Source: an uncultured Alphaproteobacteria bacterium (lineage in GTDB: Bacteria; Pseudomonadota; Alphaproteobacteria; Bin95). From it: a DNA stretch of 64,000 nucleotides. The translations under genes were made by a program, and so were the position numbers. Location of the stretch: contig CALLKY010000029.1 of assembly GCA_938083135.1 (NCBI GenBank), positions 2,087-66,086 on the forward strand, read 5' to 3'. Positions 49,724-59,735 of the stretch are shown piece by piece. A model generated the notes under the pieces. That model had not been told where the DNA came from, made no database searches, and saw only the letters and a program-made list of their open reading frames with translations. Numbering within the stretch: position 1 is the first letter of the stretch; each line of letters starts with the position of its first letter.

Positions 49724-50341
49724 ATGTCCAAGATCAATCGGAAATTCTTTTTTGACACGGTTCGCCTGCGGCTCTTTGATGGCAAGCTGAAGCTATCGCA
49801 AGTCAGCGGCCTCACAGTGCTGCTCGATTATTGGGAACTAAAGCACAGCAAGAAAGATGATCGCTGGCTTGCATATGCGTTGGCGACGGCCCACCACGAA
49901 GTCGACCGCAAGATGCAGTCAATCAAAGAATATGGGCCGGATTCCTACTTCAAGCGCATGTACGATATTCAAGGCAACCGCCTCTGGGTCACAAAGCGGC
50001 TTGGCAATCTGCAACCGGGTGACGGGGTTATGTTCCATGGTCGCGGGTTTGTGCAATTCACCGGTCGTGTGAACTACGCGGATTGGGGCAATCGGCTAAA
50101 CTTAGACCTTACATCCAGTCGCGTTGCTGCCGATGCGGTGCTCGATGTTGAAGTTGCAACGATGATCTTGTTTGAAGGCATGATCCTCGGCACATTCACG
50201 CGCAAGAAGTTCAGCGATTACCTGAATGCTACAAAAGAAGATTGGGAAGGCGCGCGGCGGATCATCAACGGCAGGGACAAAAAAGTGCTGATCGCTTCAT
50301 ATGCCAAGAAATACTACTCCGCGATTTCCTACACGGTTTAA
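49724..50341 (+). CDS. GH19-like lysozyme/chitinase-fold protein (endolysin-like, no signal peptide)
   Basis: LAYALATAHHE...RLGNLQPGDGVMFHGRGFVQFTGRVNY matches the GH19 lysozyme core (AHES...GN..GDG..FRGRG.IQLTG..NY). AT-rich leader, GGAGGA RBS, lower GC. Confidence 0.6.
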   Translation: MSKINRKFFFDTVRLRLFDGKLKLSQVSGLTVLLDYWELKHSKKDDRWLAYALATAHHEVDRKMQSIKEYGPDSYFKRMYDIQGNRLWVTKRLGNLQPGDGVMFHGRGFVQFTGRVNYADWGNRLNLDLTSSRVAADAVLDVEVATMILFEGMILGTFTRKKFSDYLNATKEDWEGARRIINGRDKKVLIASYAKKYYSAISYTV

Positions 50342-51920: not shown

Positions 51921-52037
51921 TATTTTGGTCCCCTGAATGATCGCGCGACCATATGGAGCGGTCCCAAGGATGGCAAGAGAAAGGGCCGATGCGATTCGTA
52001 TCGCACCGGCCCTTCGCCCGTCATAACCACTCAGCGC

Positions 52038-52481
52038 TTACAGATGCGCTAGAGCTTCCAGCACTTCTTCTGGATGCTCTGCCGGTTTCACCGTATCAAA
52101 GCGGCGGACGACCTTGCCGTCCGGTCCAATCAATACGGAAATCCGGGTCGGGCGGGGCGATTCATCATTCGCCGCGCCGTACGCGATCGACATGCTCTTA
52201 TCCGTGTCCGACAACAGGTCGAATGGGAAATCAAACTTGTCTTTAAAGGCTTTGTTGTCACTGGGCGCATCGAAGCTGCAGCCCATTACAACCACTTCAT
52301 TTGATTGAAAATCTTGGATTCTGTCACGGAACCCTTTGCCTTCAATCGTTCAACCAGGCGTATTCGCCTTGGGGTACCACCAGATCAGCACATACTTGCC
52401 AGCTTGGTCGCTCAAAGAAACTTGAGCGCCATCCTGGTTCGACAGGCTGAATCCGGGGGCCGTTTCACCAACCCCTGCCAT
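52038..52481 (-). CDS. bcp: Bcp/PrxQ-type peroxiredoxin with TGA at the peroxidatic Cys codon. This is either a candidate selenoprotein or a nonsense pseudogene.
   Basis: ATG (rc 52479..52481) with GGAG 7 nt upstream. The translation is collinear with E. coli Bcp (YPKANTPG[TGA]TIEGKGFRD versus YPKAMTPGCTVQACGLRD). TGA lies at plus 52350..52352. The ORF track reports only the 85-aa tail (52038..52295). Confidence 0.6.
52303..52347 (-). other. Hairpin starting 3 nt downstream of the in-frame UGA of bcp (SECIS-like candidate)
   Basis: mRNA GAUUGAA-GGCAAA-GGGUUC-CGUGACA-GAAUCC-AAGAUU-UUCAAUC. It has a 7-bp lower stem, a 6x6 internal loop, a 6-bp upper stem with one G.U pair, and a 7-nt loop. Confidence 0.4.
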
Positions 52482-52502
52482 TTGCCGTTCTCCTTCAGTG
52501 AT

Positions 52503-52627: not shown

Positions 52628-55600
52628 ATGCGCACACGTTTAACCGTACTGGGAATAATATTCGCTTCATTCCTCGTAACTGGCGCGGCGCAGGCAGCTG
52701 ACCCAAGTTTCGATTGCGCCAAAGCATCAACAAATGTCGAAAAGCTGATTTGCGGTGACGATGCCCTAGCGGCGCAAGATGCCGCCATGGCGGATGCCTA
52801 TCGCAATGGCCGAAGGGTCTTGAGCGGCACCCGTCTTGATCGACTAAAACGGACGCAACGCTCATGGGCCAGAAGCCGCGCAGAAGCTTGCCCAGCAACG
52901 GCCGACCCAAAGGCACGCCAGGCGGCGACAGCATGTCTTGCAGGCATCTATGATACGCGAACAGACGCTATTTTTGCGATGACAGCACGCTCAATGCTGC
53001 GGCAGCCAACAGCATCAATTGAAGCTGATAGGCGCTCGCCGCTCGTTTGCGTAACGTTCGATGCAAAATTGGATGCGAAGCAACCGGCAGCGCTCGAAAC
53101 CTATGTATCCAGCAAGAATGGGGCGAAGCTTGCGGCGCGCATCAATGACAATCAGCTCTGCGTCGAAGGCTTTCCCCACGGCCAGGAAGACCAGCTGACA
53201 ATCTATGCAGGCCTGCGCGGCTCCAATGCAATGCTGCGGAAGGCGCAGACCGTTGACCTCGACGTGCCAGATCGCCCACGCCGTGTTGCGTTCCCATCCT
53301 CCGGCCTGATCCTGCCACTAACAGGGTCCGCTGGGTTGCCCATTGAAACCGTCAATCTGGATAAAGTCCGCGTCCTGGTGTTGCGGGTCGATGACCGCGA
53401 TGTCGTCGCCAATCTCCGCCGTGGGCTAATCGGTCAGCAGGTCAGCTATAATGAAGTTGGCCGTGCCGCCAGTAAGCTTGGCCGAAATGTCTGGACCGGC
53501 GATCTATTAATCGACAGCAAACAGAATCAATCCGCCAGGACTGCCCTGGCAATCGGCGATGTCATGCCGGATCTGAAGCCTGGCGTTTACTTGGCCGTAG
53601 CGGAAGATCCAGAAACTGATTTCCACGACGCCTATTGGGCGACGGCACAATGGTTTGTCGTATCTGATATCGGCCTGACCGCCTTCCAAGGCCTCGACGG
53701 ATTGACAGTTGCAGTCAGATCACTCAGCTCCGCGTTGCCTCAGGCTGGCGCAAAGCTTGTGCTGAAGTCCAATGATGGTGCCGACTTGGCCACCGTCACA
53801 TCTGATGCTGAGGGGCTTGGAAAGTTCGATATTGGTTATTTGCGCGGCCAAGGCAATGCAACGCCACATTCTGTCCTGGCTTACGGAGAGGCGGGCGACT
53901 TTGTTTATCTGGACCTCAACCGCTCATCACTCGATCTGTCAGATCGTGGCGTTGATGGCAGGCCAGCGCCGGGGGCGCTTGATGCCTATCTGAGGACGGA
54001 ACGCGGCGTTTATCGTCCTGGGGAGCCCGTACATTTCACTGCATTGCTCCGCTCCCCCAATTCCACCGCTGTCGAAAGCCAACCGCTAACATTGCGTGTT
54101 GTCCGCCAGGATGGACTTGAAGTCTATCGGTGCTCACTCCGCGATATGGGAGCAGGCGGATACTCCGCAACCATTTCACTGCCGCCCACAGCAGCAACCG
54201 GCAAATGGCGCGCAAGCCTGCATGCGTCTGCAAAGGGCGAAGCCATCGGGGCTACCAGCTTCTTGGTGGAAGACTTTGTTCCACCACGCATTGAAGCCAC
54301 CGTCGAAGCAAATCGCGATGGCCAATCCATCATAGCGACGGTCCAGGCAGATTTTTTGTATGGTGCCCCAGCAGCCGATATTCCGGTTGAAGTCGCAGCC
54401 ACGGTTCGTGAAGCACGGAATCCAGCGCCCGCCTTCAAAGGCTATAAATTCGGGCTCGCCCAGGAATCCACCGTAACGGGTGTCAGGCTTGGTTTAGGCT
54501 TGGGCGAAACAGACGAAAGCGGTGCAGCAGCGATCGCGGTCGATTTGGACGACCTTCCTGCCACCACGCGTCCACTTGAGGCTGAAATCAAGGCCAGCGT
54601 CTTTGATGTTGGCGGCAGGCCGATCATTGCGCGAACAACAGTCTCTTTGAAGAACTTACCGCAACTAATTGGCGTCAAACCATTATTTGAAGATGGCGGC
54701 ATTCAGCAAGGGGCTGTGGCCAGCTTCAATATCGTGGCCCTTGATGCATCCGGGACGCCAGAAGCCAGAACGCTAGAATATGCGATTATTCGGGAGGAGT
54801 ATGAGTATATCTGGTTTGATGCGGGCGGCCGCTGGGATTACCGGGTCCAATACCTGGATGCAGGCCTTGTTGACGCTGGCACGCTCACCATTGCCACTGA
54901 TACTCCAGCGCTCGTCTCCAGGCGCTTCGATGATTGGGGCCGCTTCCGCCTGGATGTGACCGATCCAGCCACTGGTGCCGCTACCAGCGTGCGCTTCCAT
55001 GCAGGCTGGTGGGGTGCGGGCGCAGGAGCGGACCCGGCACCGGACAAAGTGAAAATCGTCGTCGGCCCAGGCCCCTATAATCCTGGAGACAGCGTTCGGG
55101 TGACGATTGAACCGCCGTTCGATGCCCAAGTCATGGTGACGGTCGCTGATAGCGCCGTGCACTCGACCGAAATGGCGGCGATCCCGGCATCTGGTGGTGA
55201 AATCACTGTAAAACTGCCTGATGCAGGTGCCGCAGGTGTCTATCTGCTAGTCAACGCGTTTGGCCAAGCTGATGGCGAGCGCACGCAAGCCCCCCGCCGG
55301 GCTATCGGCGCACAATGGATCGCCTTTGATCCCGCACCAAGAACGCTAGATGTAGCGATGCAAGCGCCCGAGGCAACGGAGCCTGAGCGGCAGGTGAACG
55401 TGACTGTGCAGCTTGGCGCCGACGCCGCAGGCGACCCGGCCTATGTGACAGTCGCTGCTGTTGATGATGGCGTGCTTGGCCTCACAGGCTACAAATCACC
55501 CGACCCAGAGGCCTATTTCCTTGGCAAACGCCGCCTTGGTTTGGCATTACGTGACGTATATGGCCAGTTCATCGACGCAGCAGGATCTGTCGTGGGTAGG

Positions 55601-57679
55601 GTGCGAAGTGGTGGTGATGCGGAGGCTGACGCGAACGCCAACCAGCTTTCCAATCTGCCGAAGAAGACCCAGCCGGTGCTGGCGATTTTTAGCGGCATTG
55701 TGCTAACGGACCCATCTGGCAAAGCCGTTATCCCACTGAACCTTCCAGATTTCACAGGCCGCGTCCGCATCATGGCCCAGGCCTGGAACCAGGAGCGCGT
55801 CGGTGCCGCTGAATCCACTATGCTCGTGCGCCGTCCCGTGGTCGCAACCATGGCGATGCCGCGGTTCTTAAGCCCGAATGATACTGCAGATATCAGCATA
55901 TCTATCCGCAACCTTTCTGGCCTTGCAGGCGAATACCGTGCCGAGCTGACAACATCCGGCGTGATTGGCGCACCGGAAAACGCCGTTCTGACAGCAAATC
56001 TGAAGCCTGGCGACCCAGATGCACGTGCAGCCTTCGAAGTGCTGGCGATTGCACCCGGTGACACTGAAATGATGCTGACTGTCACGGGGCCAAACGGTAG
56101 GGTTTTCGAACGCCGCCGGACCATTACCACGCGCCCAGCGGCAGCCACACAAACCCGGAAGTTCCTCACCAAGCTCAAGCCCGGCAAATCACTGACGGTT
56201 GATCCATCTCTCCTGGACGGTCTGTATCCTGAAACAACAAATGTCGTGCTTGGCGTTAATCCGTTGCCAGACTTGGATTTGCCGTCGATTTTGGCAGGTC
56301 TATCCAGGTATCCCTACGGCTGCGCTGAACAGACGACATCCAAGGCAATGCCGCTGCTTCATGTAAAGGCGCTCCAAAGTGCATTACGGATCAGCCATGC
56401 TGGCCCACCAGCAGATGCCGTGGACAAAGGCGTCCTGCGGTTACTGGGGATGCAGTCCAGCAGCGGCGGATTCGGTTTCTGGAATAGCCAAAGTGAAGCC
56501 GGTGTATGGATTTCAGCCTATGTCACTGACTTCCTGGTTGATGCAAAACAGGCTGGCTACGCAGTACCCCAAGCCGCATTAGACAGAGCGTTGACGCGCT
56601 TGAGCGGCCTGGCGGATATCCGTTACCGGTTCGATAGATCACCGGAGGGTACGGGTGCCGCATATGCGCTTTATGTCAAGGCAAAAGCGGGCGTGGCTGA
56701 TCCAGCCCGGGTCCGTCGGTTTGCGGCGCAGCTCCCAAGCATGAAGCCAACCAGCCTTGGTCGCGCATTTGTTGCAGCCAGCCTCTCTGCCGTTGGCGAT
56801 AGGGGCAGGGCGCGCGCACTGTTCGCAACCATTCCAATGACCTCAAAGGCACAGAATGACGCGCACTACTACACCTATGGCTCCAATGTTCGGAATGCAG
56901 CTGCAATTTTGGCGCTGATGGCGGCAAGCCAGGATGTGGACTGGCCAGTGCTTGAAGCGCGCGCGGAGGTGCTCTCTGCCATGGTGCATGAGCGTCGCTG
57001 GCTCTCAACCCAGGAGCAGGCATGGATCGTTAAAGCGGCAGCGGGCCTTACTGGCGGCGACGCAAGCAATGTCGCTATCGGTGTTGACGGCGTGAACGTG
57101 ACGCTTGGTGGTGGGCAAGGTCTTTACCGGACTGTGTCCGCAACCAACATCGCATCCGCCCCCAGGATGGTGAACAACAGTGACCGCCAGATTACAGGCC
57201 TTGTCACGGTAACAGGATCGCCAAGCCAGGCGCTGCCTGCAGCCCAGCAAGGCTTCACAATTGAACGGACGCTGTTCACCGCTGATGGATCGCCCTTGGA
57301 CCCCAGCAAAGTGCGCCAGAACGATATTGTCGTTGTAACGCTGAAAGGCCAAATGATCGCGAAGGGCAGGGCACGCGCTTTGGCCGTGGATTACTTGCCT
57401 GCTGGGCTTGAACTAGAAAACGCCAAACTTGGTGGTGATGATCTAGGGGCCTATGGCTGGCTTGGTGCCGTCACCATGCCAGAGCATGTTGAACTGCGTG
57501 ATGACCGCTATATCGCCCAGGTAAACCTATCGCAGAAGGGGGAGTTCCGCGTTGCCTATATCGCCCGCGCCGTAACACCTGGCCACTTCGCCCACGGCGG
57601 CGCGCATATCGAAGATATGTACCAGCCGGAACAGTTTGGCCGGGGTGCGGCGACATCGATTGTGATTAGCAAACGCTAG
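52628..57679 (+). CDS. Bacterial alpha-2-macroglobulin family protein (thioester type)
   Basis: 1683 aa with a signal peptide, MG-domain repeats and a GCAEQ thioester motif. It is followed 10 nt later by pbpC, the classic A2M-PBP1C pairing. Confidence 0.9.
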   Translation: MRTRLTVLGIIFASFLVTGAAQAADPSFDCAKASTNVEKLICGDDALAAQDAAMADAYRNGRRVLSGTRLDRLKRTQRSWARSRAEACPATADPKARQAATACLAGIYDTRTDAIFAMTARSMLRQPTASIEADRRSPLVCVTFDAKLDAKQPAALETYVSSKNGAKLAARINDNQLCVEGFPHGQEDQLTIYAGLRGSNAMLRKAQTVDLDVPDRPRRVAFPSSGLILPLTGSAGLPIETVNLDKVRVLVLRVDDRDVVANLRRGLIGQQVSYNEVGRAASKLGRNVWTGDLLIDSKQNQSARTALAIGDVMPDLKPGVYLAVAEDPETDFHDAYWATAQWFVVSDIGLTAFQGLDGLTVAVRSLSSALPQAGAKLVLKSNDGADLATVTSDAEGLGKFDIGYLRGQGNATPHSVLAYGEAGDFVYLDLNRSSLDLSDRGVDGRPAPGALDAYLRTERGVYRPGEPVHFTALLRSPNSTAVESQPLTLRVVRQDGLEVYRCSLRDMGAGGYSATISLPPTAATGKWRASLHASAKGEAIGATSFLVEDFVPPRIEATVEANRDGQSIIATVQADFLYGAPAADIPVEVAATVREARNPAPAFKGYKFGLAQESTVTGVRLGLGLGETDESGAAAIAVDLDDLPATTRPLEAEIKASVFDVGGRPIIARTTVSLKNLPQLIGVKPLFEDGGIQQGAVASFNIVALDASGTPEARTLEYAIIREEYEYIWFDAGGRWDYRVQYLDAGLVDAGTLTIATDTPALVSRRFDDWGRFRLDVTDPATGAATSVRFHAGWWGAGAGADPAPDKVKIVVGPGPYNPGDSVRVTIEPPFDAQVMVTVADSAVHSTEMAAIPASGGEITVKLPDAGAAGVYLLVNAFGQADGERTQAPRRAIGAQWIAFDPAPRTLDVAMQAPEATEPERQVNVTVQLGADAAGDPAYVTVAAVDDGVLGLTGYKSPDPEAYFLGKRRLGLALRDVYGQFIDAAGSVVGRVRSGGDAEADANANQLSNLPKKTQPVLAIFSGIVLTDPSGKAVIPLNLPDFTGRVRIMAQAWNQERVGAAESTMLVRRPVVATMAMPRFLSPNDTADISISIRNLSGLAGEYRAELTTSGVIGAPENAVLTANLKPGDPDARAAFEVLAIAPGDTEMMLTVTGPNGRVFERRRTITTRPAAATQTRKFLTKLKPGKSLTVDPSLLDGLYPETTNVVLGVNPLPDLDLPSILAGLSRYPYGCAEQTTSKAMPLLHVKALQSALRISHAGPPADAVDKGVLRLLGMQSSSGGFGFWNSQSEAGVWISAYVTDFLVDAKQAGYAVPQAALDRALTRLSGLADIRYRFDRSPEGTGAAYALYVKAKAGVADPARVRRFAAQLPSMKPTSLGRAFVAASLSAVGDRGRARALFATIPMTSKAQNDAHYYTYGSNVRNAAAILALMAASQDVDWPVLEARAEVLSAMVHERRWLSTQEQAWIVKAAAGLTGGDASNVAIGVDGVNVTLGGGQGLYRTVSATNIASAPRMVNNSDRQITGLVTVTGSPSQALPAAQQGFTIERTLFTADGSPLDPSKVRQNDIVVVTLKGQMIAKGRARALAVDYLPAGLELENAKLGGDDLGAYGWLGAVTMPEHVELRDDRYIAQVNLSQKGEFRVAYIARAVTPGHFAHGGAHIEDMYQPEQFGRGAATSIVISKR

Positions 57680-57689
57680 GATATTTAGC

Positions 57690-59735
57690 GTGCGGCGATG
57701 GTGCAGATATCTCGCAGGGGGCTTGGTCGGCGTTGGCATTGGGCTATGCGCACTAGACCTTGCAGCCCCGCCGCCGCTGGAGCGGTTTAATGACCGCTCG
57801 CTTGTCGTTGCCGATAGATCAGGTGCGCCGCTACGCATCTTCCAAAGCGCAGACGATAAATGGCGGCTGCTGACACGCCCGACGGATGTCGACCCGCTGT
57901 ATCTGGCCATGCTTAAAGCCTATGAGGATAAGCGCTTTGACCAGCATTGGGGCGTTGATCCGCTGGCGATAGGTCGCGCTGCCGGGCAGGCGATTGGGGC
58001 GGGACAAATCGTTTCCGGCGCATCAACCCTAACGATGCAGGCTGTGAAACTGCTCTCGCCTAGACCACGGACACTTTTGGCAAAGGCGATTGAGATGGGC
58101 CGGGCGGTTCAACTGGAATCTCGTCTTGCCAAAGATGATGTTCTGGCCATCTACCTCACACTGGCGCCGTTCGGTGGACCAGTGGAGGGCGTTCGGGCGG
58201 CGTCCCTCAAGCTTTTCGGCCACGAACCCTCGCTGCTGACGCCCGCAGAGGCCGCTCTACTGATCGCGATACCGCAATCGCCAAACGCCCGCCGGCCTGA
58301 TCGCCAACCGTCACAGGCGAAAGCTGCGCGTGCTCGCGTCCTGGACCGCGTGATGAAAGCAGGCGTGATCACGGCGGAGGCTGCCGAAACCGCCAAAAAC
58401 GCACCCCTACCCACCGGCTATGCCAATTTCCCACTTCACGCACCACATTTCGCAGAAGCGCAATCAGCGACCTCAGATACAGCCCACACCACGCTAGATG
58501 GACGACTGCAGAAATTGGCCGAGGTCAGGCTCCGTGCAGCGCTTCAAGATCATGCGTCCCCAGCAACGGCTTCCGCCATGATCGTCCATGCGCCGACCGC
58601 GGAAATCCGCGCAATCGTTGGCAACCCAAACTACTTTGACACCAAGCGCGCCGGCATGACGGATATGACGCTGCCACTTCGTTCTCCAGGGTCTGCGCTG
58701 AAGCCCTTTATATACGGCCTGGCGTTTGATCGGCTCGTCGCCGCACCCGGAACGCTTATTCATGACCGGCCTTGGCGGTCAAAGGGCTACGCGCCCACCA
58801 ATTTCAGTGGAGAATGGGCCGGAGAAGTCACGATCCGGGATGCATTGACGCGCTCACTCAATGTACCAGCGGTCAAAGTCCTGGGCCGTATTGGACCCGC
58901 CCAATTTGATGCAGCACTGGCGACTGCTGGCATTAACCTGACCTTTGATCGCGAGCGAGGCGATGCTGGGCTGGCGCTAGCGCTTGGCGGTGTTGGCGTT
59001 TCTATGCGGGATATGGCCAGGCTTTACGTCGGCCTGGCATCTGGCGGACACGTGCCGGACGTACTCGCAACCACACAAGGGCAAGCGGTTAATTGGGTGG
59101 AGCTTCTGGCACCGGAAGCCGCATCACAAGTGCTGACGATTTTGAAGGAAGCGCCCCCACCAACCGGGCAGACAGTTACAGCCGCAGCGTCAAGACAAAG
59201 CACATCCCGCATCGCCTTCAAAACCGGTACATCCTATGGCTATCGCGACGCTTGGGCGGCAGGCGTCATCGGTGAATATGTTGTCATTGCCTGGGTAGGG
59301 CGGGCAGACGCAGCCCCTTGCGCTGGATGTGTGGGTATTGGTGCGGCGGCACCAATTCTATTTGACCTTGCAGAACTGATCGAAACGCCGGGGCGAATGC
59401 ATCACGTCCCGGCTATTGCTAAAGCGCCGCCACCGCATCTGGCGCATTTCGATGGAGCGGAACGGCGGAATATATCAGCAGGGCCGCCAGTACGGATCAG
59501 CTTTCCGGTAGATGGTGCCCGCATGCGTCTGGGCAGGAGCGGACGGGCACCGCTAACGGCATTGGGCGGCTTACCGCCATACCGTTGGCTCACCAATGGC
59601 GCGCCCGCAGGCAATTCAGCGCCGGGCCGCTCATTGCCTTGGGCACCGAACGGCGGCGGGTATCATGAGGTGGTCGTGATCGACAGCGCGGGTGCGGAAG
59701 CCTCCGCGCGTGTGTTCATTGATGCTGGGTCATAG
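57690..59735 (+). CDS. pbpC: Penicillin-binding protein 1C (glycosyltransferase plus transpeptidase)
   Basis: N-terminal TM helix, a GT51-type region (QAVKLLSPRPRTLLAKAIE), the SALKPF transpeptidase motif (SxxK), and a C-terminal PbpC domain. Confidence 0.9.
   Translation: MRRWCRYLAGGLVGVGIGLCALDLAAPPPLERFNDRSLVVADRSGAPLRIFQSADDKWRLLTRPTDVDPLYLAMLKAYEDKRFDQHWGVDPLAIGRAAGQAIGAGQIVSGASTLTMQAVKLLSPRPRTLLAKAIEMGRAVQLESRLAKDDVLAIYLTLAPFGGPVEGVRAASLKLFGHEPSLLTPAEAALLIAIPQSPNARRPDRQPSQAKAARARVLDRVMKAGVITAEAAETAKNAPLPTGYANFPLHAPHFAEAQSATSDTAHTTLDGRLQKLAEVRLRAALQDHASPATASAMIVHAPTAEIRAIVGNPNYFDTKRAGMTDMTLPLRSPGSALKPFIYGLAFDRLVAAPGTLIHDRPWRSKGYAPTNFSGEWAGEVTIRDALTRSLNVPAVKVLGRIGPAQFDAALATAGINLTFDRERGDAGLALALGGVGVSMRDMARLYVGLASGGHVPDVLATTQGQAVNWVELLAPEAASQVLTILKEAPPPTGQTVTAAASRQSTSRIAFKTGTSYGYRDAWAAGVIGEYVVIAWVGRADAAPCAGCVGIGAAAPILFDLAELIETPGRMHHVPAIAKAPPPHLAHFDGAERRNISAGPPVRISFPVDGARMRLGRSGRAPLTALGGLPPYRWLTNGAPAGNSAPGRSLPWAPNGGGYHEVVVIDSAGAEASARVFIDAGS

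Follow-up and report, generated by a model that had tools for sequence, protein, structure and literature searches.

Gene structure and genomic context

In the 64-kb stretch of DNA that was analysed (hereafter, the window), the minus strand carries a complete coding sequence at 52038..52481, which, based on its translation and on its Pfam, NCBIfam and PDB matches, appears to encode a BCP/PrxQ-like 1-Sec peroxiredoxin. The sequence comprises 147 codons, including codon 44, a UGA at the peroxidatic position (52350..52352, minus strand), which its conservation among the orthologs and its alignment to Cys suggest is read as selenocysteine, and it is terminated by a TAA at 52038..52040. The minus-strand translation contained this one in-frame TGA and no other stops or frameshifts. 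The first-pass annotation had described a peptide interrupted by a single TGA that had been missed by ORF calling, and both points held: the translation of 52038..52481 was identical to the peptide that had been quoted, and standard ORF calling cuts the gene in two, giving products of 43 aa (52350..52481) and 85 aa (52038..52295). A Shine-Dalgarno-like GGAG (within AAGGAG) was read from the sequence at 52490..52493 on the minus strand; it lies 8 nt before the ATG at 52479..52481 and not 7 nt, as had originally been given. In 79 of the 80 related genome loci described below, which were analysed for this feature, the first in-frame start codon was mostly located 43-45 codons ahead of the UGA.

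Beginning 22 nt past the stop codon, direct folding revealed an intrinsic-terminator-like hairpin at 51975..52015 (minus strand) with a 16-bp stem and an ACGA loop, which runs into UUUCUCUU. Its folding energy was -35.4 kcal/mol (z = -4.16), and none of 200 shuffles was equally stable, although a simple terminator consensus scan did not flag it. Because a strong hairpin and a U-tract follow the stop codon, the peroxiredoxin gene is probably monocistronic. It is flanked by a divergent alpha-2-macroglobulin/PBP1C pair on one side and by two SDR genes on the other, and a comparison of the 3 kb around it with plasmids gave no match. TGA terminates 11 of the 50 long ORFs of the window and is therefore an ordinary stop in this organism, which uses the standard code. 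Genes are densely packed in the window, and no second obviously split one appears on its map. A hunt for a second selenoprotein, in which the window was scanned for read-through ORFs and all of the loci for a redox motif plus a hairpin, returned 1,677 candidates that were mostly off-frame high-GC noise.

Protein family and active site

When the TGA was translated as Cys, residues 4-125 of the protein matched the Pfam family AhpC-TSA (PF00578) with 109.9 bits (E = 1e-31; cut-off 26), and Redoxin was also matched. The best NCBIfam matches were Bcp PRK09437 (NF006960) and PrxQ, with the score for the Bcp equivalog PRK09437 (111.8 bits) falling below its curated cut-off of 140. Judging by these matches, the protein would be BCP/PrxQ-like at the subfamily level and no equivalog of E. 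coli Bcp. The models for selenoperoxiredoxins scored far below their cut-offs, with 46.4 bits for PrxU NF040737 (cut-off 270) and 21.8 bits for Prx-SUH NF045827 (cut-off 298). The closest solved structures were also those of BCP/PrxQ proteins (3drn, 5iph and 3gkk), in which the TGA aligned with the peroxidatic Cys or with the Ser that had been engineered in its place; this confirmed the original proposal that the TGA is placed exactly at the peroxidatic Cys codon.

The PxxxTxxU motif is formed by P37, T41 and U44, and each of these positions (-7, -3 and 0 relative to the UGA) was 100% conserved among the orthologs. R113, which corresponds to R69 of the downstream alignment, was also invariant and aligned with the Arg in ERSTFLL of the Xanthomonas PrxQ 5iph, which we take to be the catalytic Arg of PrxQ. 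The resolving Cys at +5 that characterises an atypical 2-Cys BCP was absent, with K, N or Q found there in all orthologs. There was likewise no resolving Cys at the position of the second Cys of the Xanthomonas PrxQ in the alignment to 5iph, where the aligned Ser is presumably an engineered substitution of the resolving Cys located in helix α3. Since no second Cys column was conserved in the family, and Cys68 was confined to the close subclade of the window protein, a 1-Cys-type (1-Sec) cycle is probable. The protein is thus probably a BCP/PrxQ-like thiol peroxidase of the 1-Cys (1-Sec) type, whose selenenic acid would be reduced by an external thiol protein.

Conservation of the in-frame TGA

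Via the neighbouring SDR protein, 22 metagenome contigs were traced, and six of them, which differ in sample and assembler (ENA, JGI and Logan), were fetched. All six of these independent assemblies had the same TGA and the same split into 43 aa and 82 aa. Additionally, contigs of one genome per species were scanned using an alignment restricted to the region 3' of the TGA, and the 80 best loci were kept; because the query began after the TGA, the retrieval could not select for it. These loci shared 54-99% protein identity and belonged mostly to marine MAGs of Alphaproteobacteria/Rhodospirillaceae. Carriers of the gene include the JBDQJI01 MAG (L007), whose ortholog is 99% identical, and the closed chromosomes OZ253490.1, OZ244041.1, OZ253470.1 and CBDCQY010000001.1. 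TGA was present at the homologous codon in 80 of the 80 best species-representative loci (75 by pattern and five by eye), and hence in 86/86 related loci when the six assemblies are included. A comparison of the ortholog codons had been suggested in the first-pass annotation as a check of its claim, and its outcome was favourable, as the hairpin was conserved along with the TGA.

Whether both parts of the gene are constrained was assessed by comparing the 36 codons that precede the UGA with codons +20 to +48 downstream of it. The mean pairwise differences at codon positions 1, 2 and 3 were 0.255, 0.178 and 0.556 upstream and 0.222, 0.212 and 0.546 downstream. The pattern is alike on both sides, and therefore both halves are under the same purifying selection in one frame. 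The window allele differs from the near-universal KADTPGU in having Asn at -4 (KANTPGU).

The homology search showed how relatives of this gene are represented in databases. Some were mis-called as C-terminal fragments of 81-85 aa, others as proteins of 103-104 aa that start just past the TGA, and still others as full-length proteins that read TPGWTIEG. The last form accounts for many full-length database entries with Trp at the catalytic position. In one such contig (L092), the codon at the "W" was found to be TGA, and the true TGA stop of the gene was likewise translated as W. The Trp at the catalytic position in databases is thus an artefact of the gene callers, and L092 is a genetic-code-4 call on a short contig.

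Structure of the downstream hairpin

A putative bacterial SECIS hairpin of 45 nt begins at the third nucleotide after the UGA (52303..52347, minus strand) and consists of a lower stem, an internal loop and an upper stem-loop, as indicated by RNAfold and by the comparative data. RNAfold gave a lower stem GAUUGAA(GG)/(UU)UUCAAUC, an upper stem GGGUUC/GAAUCC and a 7-nt loop CGUGACA at -13.9 kcal/mol, and the description in the first-pass annotation of a hairpin right after the UGA, with both stems and this loop, was therefore accurate. The core, i.e., GGGUUC/GAAUCC with the apical loop CGUGACA, lies at 52316..52334 on the minus strand, is nucleotide-invariant across the orthologs, agrees with the bSECIS consensus and is presumed to be the SelB-binding part. 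The apical loop itself occupies 52322..52328, with G-U at loop positions 2-3.

The bSECIS consensus (PMC13188914) calls for an apical loop of 3-9 nt (7 nt here), an upper stem of 4-16 bp (6 bp), a G as the first or second loop nucleotide, as a rule with G or U after it (C-G-U, with the G at position 2 and then U), a distance of 16-37 nt from the UGA to the loop (21 nt) and an MFE of at most -7.5 kcal/mol (-13.9 kcal/mol), and the hairpin lies within each of these ranges. That its upper stem starts 15 nt after the UGA had been a worry in the first-pass annotation; with the loop at a distance that the consensus allows, this is no objection. Rfam returned no SECIS family match, either at gathering thresholds for the whole window or at E <= 10 for 52200..52450, where only chance-level HCV_SL8001 and IMES-5 appeared at the loose threshold; evidently, Rfam is without a model for this bacterial SECIS type. 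The folding energy of the hairpin was unexceptional (z = -0.85), with 38 of 200 shuffles folding as well. It is the comparative data alone, and not its stability, that make the hairpin significant, and evidence from the single sequence alone could not exclude a pseudogene.

Selection on the hairpin at the RNA level

Synonymous sites were compared in 84 distinct sequences. Codons +6 to +11, which encode G-F-R-D-R-I, were found to be frozen: Gly was encoded by GGG or GGA only, Phe by TTC (84/84), the first Arg by CGT (84/84), the second Arg by CGA or AGA only and Ile by ATC (83/83). Other invariant residues had a codon entropy of 1-1.8 bits (1.7-1.8 for Gly-16, Pro-7, Gly-1 and Gly+23 and 1.0 for Phe+35). 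The frozen codons are those that make up the GGRUUC/GAAUCC upper stem and the CGUGAYM loop. Being invariant, the upper stem offers no compensatory changes, and its support is synonymous-site conservation only.

In the case of the lower stem, ungapped column-wise pairing placed the window in the register i+j=56 and most orthologs in i+j=55, the window being shifted by one because its Phe is encoded by UUU and not by UUC. As the register of the window fails for most orthologs, per-sequence folding, an arm-swap test and pair counts in the majority register were used. Folding of each sequence showed the same two-stem architecture in 74/74 unique 54-mers. Distinct pairs of lower-stem arms were found, namely AUUGAA/UUCAAU, AUCGAAG/CUUCGAG, GUUGAAG/CUUCAAC, CUGAA/UUCAG and GUGGAGGG/UUUCUCCUC. 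When the 3' arms were swapped among sequences, the mean energy rose from -12.96 kcal/mol for a sequence's own arm to -11.41±0.20 kcal/mol, and none of 5000 permutations was as stable. Within the lower stem, the four innermost pairs are dictated by the codons of the conserved Glu-Gly and Asp-Phe, and the covariation lies outside them: at pair 9-46, 31 sequences had C-G and 17 had U-A, and G46 was found only with C9 (30/30). In the majority register, the covariation score was 0.149 compared to 0.121 for shuffles (0/500 reached it) and <=0.07 for slid registers, although the counts behind it are not phylogenetically independent events. The alignment of the 80 species provides a clean example of a SECIS in which dual coding with GFRDRIQ has kept the 19 nt of the upper stem-loop frozen while the lower stem covaries.

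Cys-form relatives and selenocysteine machinery

Three Cys-form homologs (P0054, P0001 and P0060) were fetched, and in all of them UGA-44 aligned with Cys, as is expected of a Sec/Cys pair. In P0054 (on L087 and on the identical contig L088) and P0001 (L091), the codon is TGC and nearly every base of the hairpin has been preserved, which gives the impression of a recent conversion of Sec to Cys that left a fossil SECIS behind. P0060 (on L089 and on the identical contig L090) also has TGC, with another peptide after GFRD and the codons GGC and CGC, and its upper stem has been lost. This control, small as it is (n = 3), is consistent with a hairpin constraint that is tied to UGA decoding, and the occurrence of TGC relatives with and without the hairpin appears to be the Sec/Cys pair pattern that is typical of selenoproteins.

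The machinery for Sec insertion was searched for in the 64-kb window and in approximately 1.3 Mb of flanks of the 86 related loci. ARAGORN found no tRNA-Sec in the window and 60 of the loci, and tblastn (E <= 1e-4) with E. coli queries found no SelA, SelB or SelD in the window and the 86 loci, which is a weak negative given the limited length of these flanks. Reviews place the Sec trait in Alphaproteobacteria, including Rhodospirillales, with selC nested in selB, which says nothing direct about the source genome. The conservation of a UGA and a SECIS across 80 species under purifying selection would be hard to explain without working machinery.

Interpretation and alternative explanations

The in-frame UGA, its universal conservation, the selection on both halves at the protein level, the selection on the hairpin at the RNA level and the agreement with the bSECIS consensus are observed. 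They make it very likely that the gene is intact and that UGA-44 encodes selenocysteine in a peroxiredoxin of the BCP/PrxQ branch, a reading to which we assign a probability of roughly 0.93. Together with the covariation of the lower stem, the same evidence strongly supports the Sec-PrxQ reading that had been put forward in the first-pass annotation. A literature search found no 75Se labelling or mass spectrometry evidence for this marine Sec-Prx clade. By analogy with the established bacterial Sec pathway, SelB·GTP·Sec-tRNASec would be tethered at GGGUUC-CGUGACA-GAAUCC, 16-34 nt past UGA-44, and the SelB complex would deliver Sec at this codon in place of termination. In the resulting 16-kDa product, the U44 selenolate, activated by the conserved Pro37, Thr41 and Arg113, would reduce peroxides, and the direct reductant of the U44 selenenic acid would probably be thioredoxin, glutaredoxin or a small thiol. 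Sec as the inserted residue, the binding of the hairpin by SelB and the identity of the reductant are what we infer.

The other option of the first-pass annotation, a nonsense pseudogene that arose by a recent change of TGC or TGT to TGA in an ordinary bcp/prxQ, with a hairpin that is coincidental, was rejected. TGA is indeed one base from TGC, the energy of the hairpin alone is not significant and no Sec machinery was found in the window, but a recent lesion would not be shared by 86/86 loci that span 54-99% protein identity, would not leave in-frame purifying selection on both halves or a reading frame free of further stops and frameshifts, and would not account for the frozen synonymous sites of the hairpin, and we regard this explanation as very improbable. 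Still less credible, to the point of being negligible, is a sequencing or assembly error at 52350..52352, which is an a-priori possibility only and is contradicted by the identical TGA of the six independently sampled and assembled contigs and of 80 further genomes. The conservation of the upstream part is also what speaks against two separate products, a 43-aa peptide and an N-terminally truncated redoxin of 81-104 aa that is started past the TGA. The gene callers do give ORFs of 43 aa and 82 aa, or of 103-104 aa starting just after the TGA, yet the downstream starts are not conserved (M or V at varying positions, with GTG or ATG in some lineages only), the truncated form would be without the whole PxxxTxxC active-site segment, and the 36 upstream codons, which share one frame with those downstream in every case, show an equal degree of constraint; such an arrangement is highly unlikely.

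Slightly more room, though still very little, is left for a UGA that is decoded otherwise than as Sec, either by a hairpin-stimulated near-cognate read-through (Trp or Cys) or by a code-4 reassignment to Trp. Many public orthologs are translated with W at the UGA position, and the searches of the window and of the flanks turned up no Sec machinery. However, the W residues in the databases are gene-caller artefacts, as L092 revealed, and TGA acts as a stop in 11/50 long ORFs of the window. Moreover, a peroxidatic Trp would abolish catalysis, yet the Pro, Thr and Arg of the active site are invariant; the hairpin matches the bSECIS consensus of the SelB type, and the Sargasso Sea and GOS studies have the clade curated as a selenoprotein in their supplements. 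Returning to selenocysteine at UGA-44, the SECIS core GGRUUCCGUGAYMGAAUCC (19 nt) was essentially invariant across the 80 species-level genomes, among which are bins labelled Gammaproteobacteria, Gemmatimonadetes and Verrucomicrobiales, and it was intact in the two TGC (Cys) derivatives. It is conceivable, if rather doubtful, that the Sec-Prx gene and its SECIS travel between lineages as a cassette, or that the hairpin has a second role in pausing or regulation that is selected without the UGA; bin contamination and a recent Sec-to-Cys conversion are simpler explanations.

Relation to known systems

The family is already known: a marine Sec-containing Prx (TxxU) was listed in 2005 and 2008. 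The supplement of the Sargasso Sea selenoproteome by Zhang, Fomenko and Gladyshev (2005; PMC1088965) holds the entries AACY01271188 and AACY01451564 with LLWWYPKADTPGuTIEGNGFRDRIQDF, and the GOS selenoproteome by Zhang and Gladyshev (2008; PMC2398784) counts 253 selenoprotein sequences for Prx (pfam00578, TxxU), of which JCVI_READ_560720 and JCVI_READ_1000727 (Dataset S1) belong to the same clade. Prx TxxU is among the most abundant marine selenoprotein families (PMC1088965, PMC2398784). In BLASTP, the window protein and JCVI_READ_1000727 were 60% identical over 140 residues (E = 3e-65). Both the window locus and marine Prx TxxU share the orthologous group (COG1225/pfam00578), the PxxxTxxU motif, an immediately downstream bacterial SECIS and a marine alphaproteobacterial setting, and the published entries also have the FPYDLLSD and HP segments after the Sec flank. 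Nothing substantial separates them, apart from the Asn at -4 of the window allele and the subclade-specific Cys68. The annotation of the window locus in its MAG lineage does not mark it as a selenoprotein.

The locus adds little new biology, and its main value lies in the correction of its annotation and in a clean illustration of SECIS dual coding. The Sec-Prx gene is still systematically mis-called in MAGs and protein databases, be it as 43 aa plus 82 aa, as a "peroxiredoxin" of 103-104 aa or with a spurious catalytic Trp, and surveys of antioxidant capacity or selenium use that are based on such annotations will miscount it.

E. coli Bcp and the plant and bacterial PrxQ proteins, which are of the Cys type and thioredoxin-dependent, share the fold, the subfamily and the catalytic Pro-Thr-Cys(Sec)-Arg with the window protein, whereas the latter would have Sec for the peroxidatic Cys and has no resolving Cys at +5. 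Another Sec-peroxiredoxin, PrxU of Eubacterium acidaminophilum, was reportedly characterised biochemically by Söhling and colleagues in 2001. It has Sec at the peroxidatic position and a UGA with a downstream bacterial SECIS in common with the window gene, but it belongs to another Prx subfamily, and its host is an anaerobic Firmicute, while the setting of the window gene is an aerobic marine proteobacterium. The hairpin may, by inference, work like the SECIS of E. coli fdhF, which is also a coding-region hairpin directly 3' of the UGA and has a G-U near the 5' side of its apical loop. The two show no sequence similarity; the upper stem in fdhF starts approximately 11 nt after the UGA, and in the window it starts after 15 nt and carries a loop of 7 nt.

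Variation at the catalytic position and in the SECIS hairpin

The selenocysteine peroxiredoxin gene (prx; window 52038..52481, minus strand) has Cys-form homologs that differ in what is left of the SECIS hairpin found just 3' of its TGA. In two of them, P0054 (L087:1001-1450) and P0001 (L091:120-572), the catalytic codon is TGC and the hairpin is kept almost base for base; this is a fossil SECIS, and the switch from Sec to Cys was therefore probably recent. In a third Cys-form homolog, P0060 (L089:1001-1447), which also has TGC, the hairpin is gone and other synonymous codons are used. In the public protein collections, many orthologs show Trp as the catalytic residue (TPGWTIEG; entries P0002, P0007, P0008, P0017, P0022, P0035, P0057, P0062 and P0065). 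At the locus L092:174-683, TGA is the codon behind the catalytic Trp, and the gene's real stop, another TGA, was likewise rendered as Trp, which produced a spurious C-terminal tail. The entries are therefore not genuine Trp variants but gene calls made with genetic code 4 on short contigs.

Next to the active site, codon 40 (window 52362..52364, minus strand) specifies Asn four residues ahead of Sec (position -4; PKANTPGU), as it does in the collinear contig L001. Among the 84 distinct orthologous sequences, this allele, common to the window and L001, is the sole one with Asn; the other 83 have Asp, which is also what the otherwise near-identical contigs L002-L007 encode. The Asn is a strain-level substitution adjoining the active site. 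Orthologs with the identical invariant SECIS core also occur in bins carrying the labels Verrucomicrobiales, Gammaproteobacteria and Gemmatimonadetes (L017, L040, L062, L066, L077, L082, L085 and L086); either the Sec-Prx gene has been transferred horizontally, or these contigs were mis-binned or mislabelled.

Genomic neighbourhood

Directly 3' of the prx stop codon lies a very stable hairpin (window 51975..52015, minus strand; -35.4 kcal/mol, z = -4.16), with UUUCUCUU after it. It resembles an intrinsic terminator, although a consensus terminator scan did not pick it up. Beyond it, upstream of the SDR gene, is a sequence that resembles a promoter, TTGCCA-17-TATGGT (51976..51948, minus strand). 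Divergently from prx, the plus strand encodes a bacterial alpha-2-macroglobulin of 1683 aa with MG/A2M domains (52628..57679) and a transglycosylase/transpeptidase of 681 aa with a BiPBP_C domain (57690..59735), the domains of both having been read off L001; we take these genes to resemble the A2M-PBP1C pair of other bacteria. The collinear contigs conserve a 205-aa ORF (49724..50341, plus strand) for which no Pfam match is recorded, and Pfam matches are likewise lacking for several small ORFs near the Rieske gene (47250..48386). L002, one of six near-identical metagenome contigs, departs from the window at L002:4243-9293 and L002:11890-20303: its alpha-2-macroglobulin gene is in two pieces (280 and 1403 aa), the stretch from the SDR genes to the amidohydrolase is interrupted by a Mu-type transposase and an IS630-family element, and the 2-hydroxyacid dehydrogenase gene is fragmented. 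The cause is either mobile-element activity at the strain level or noise in the assembly.
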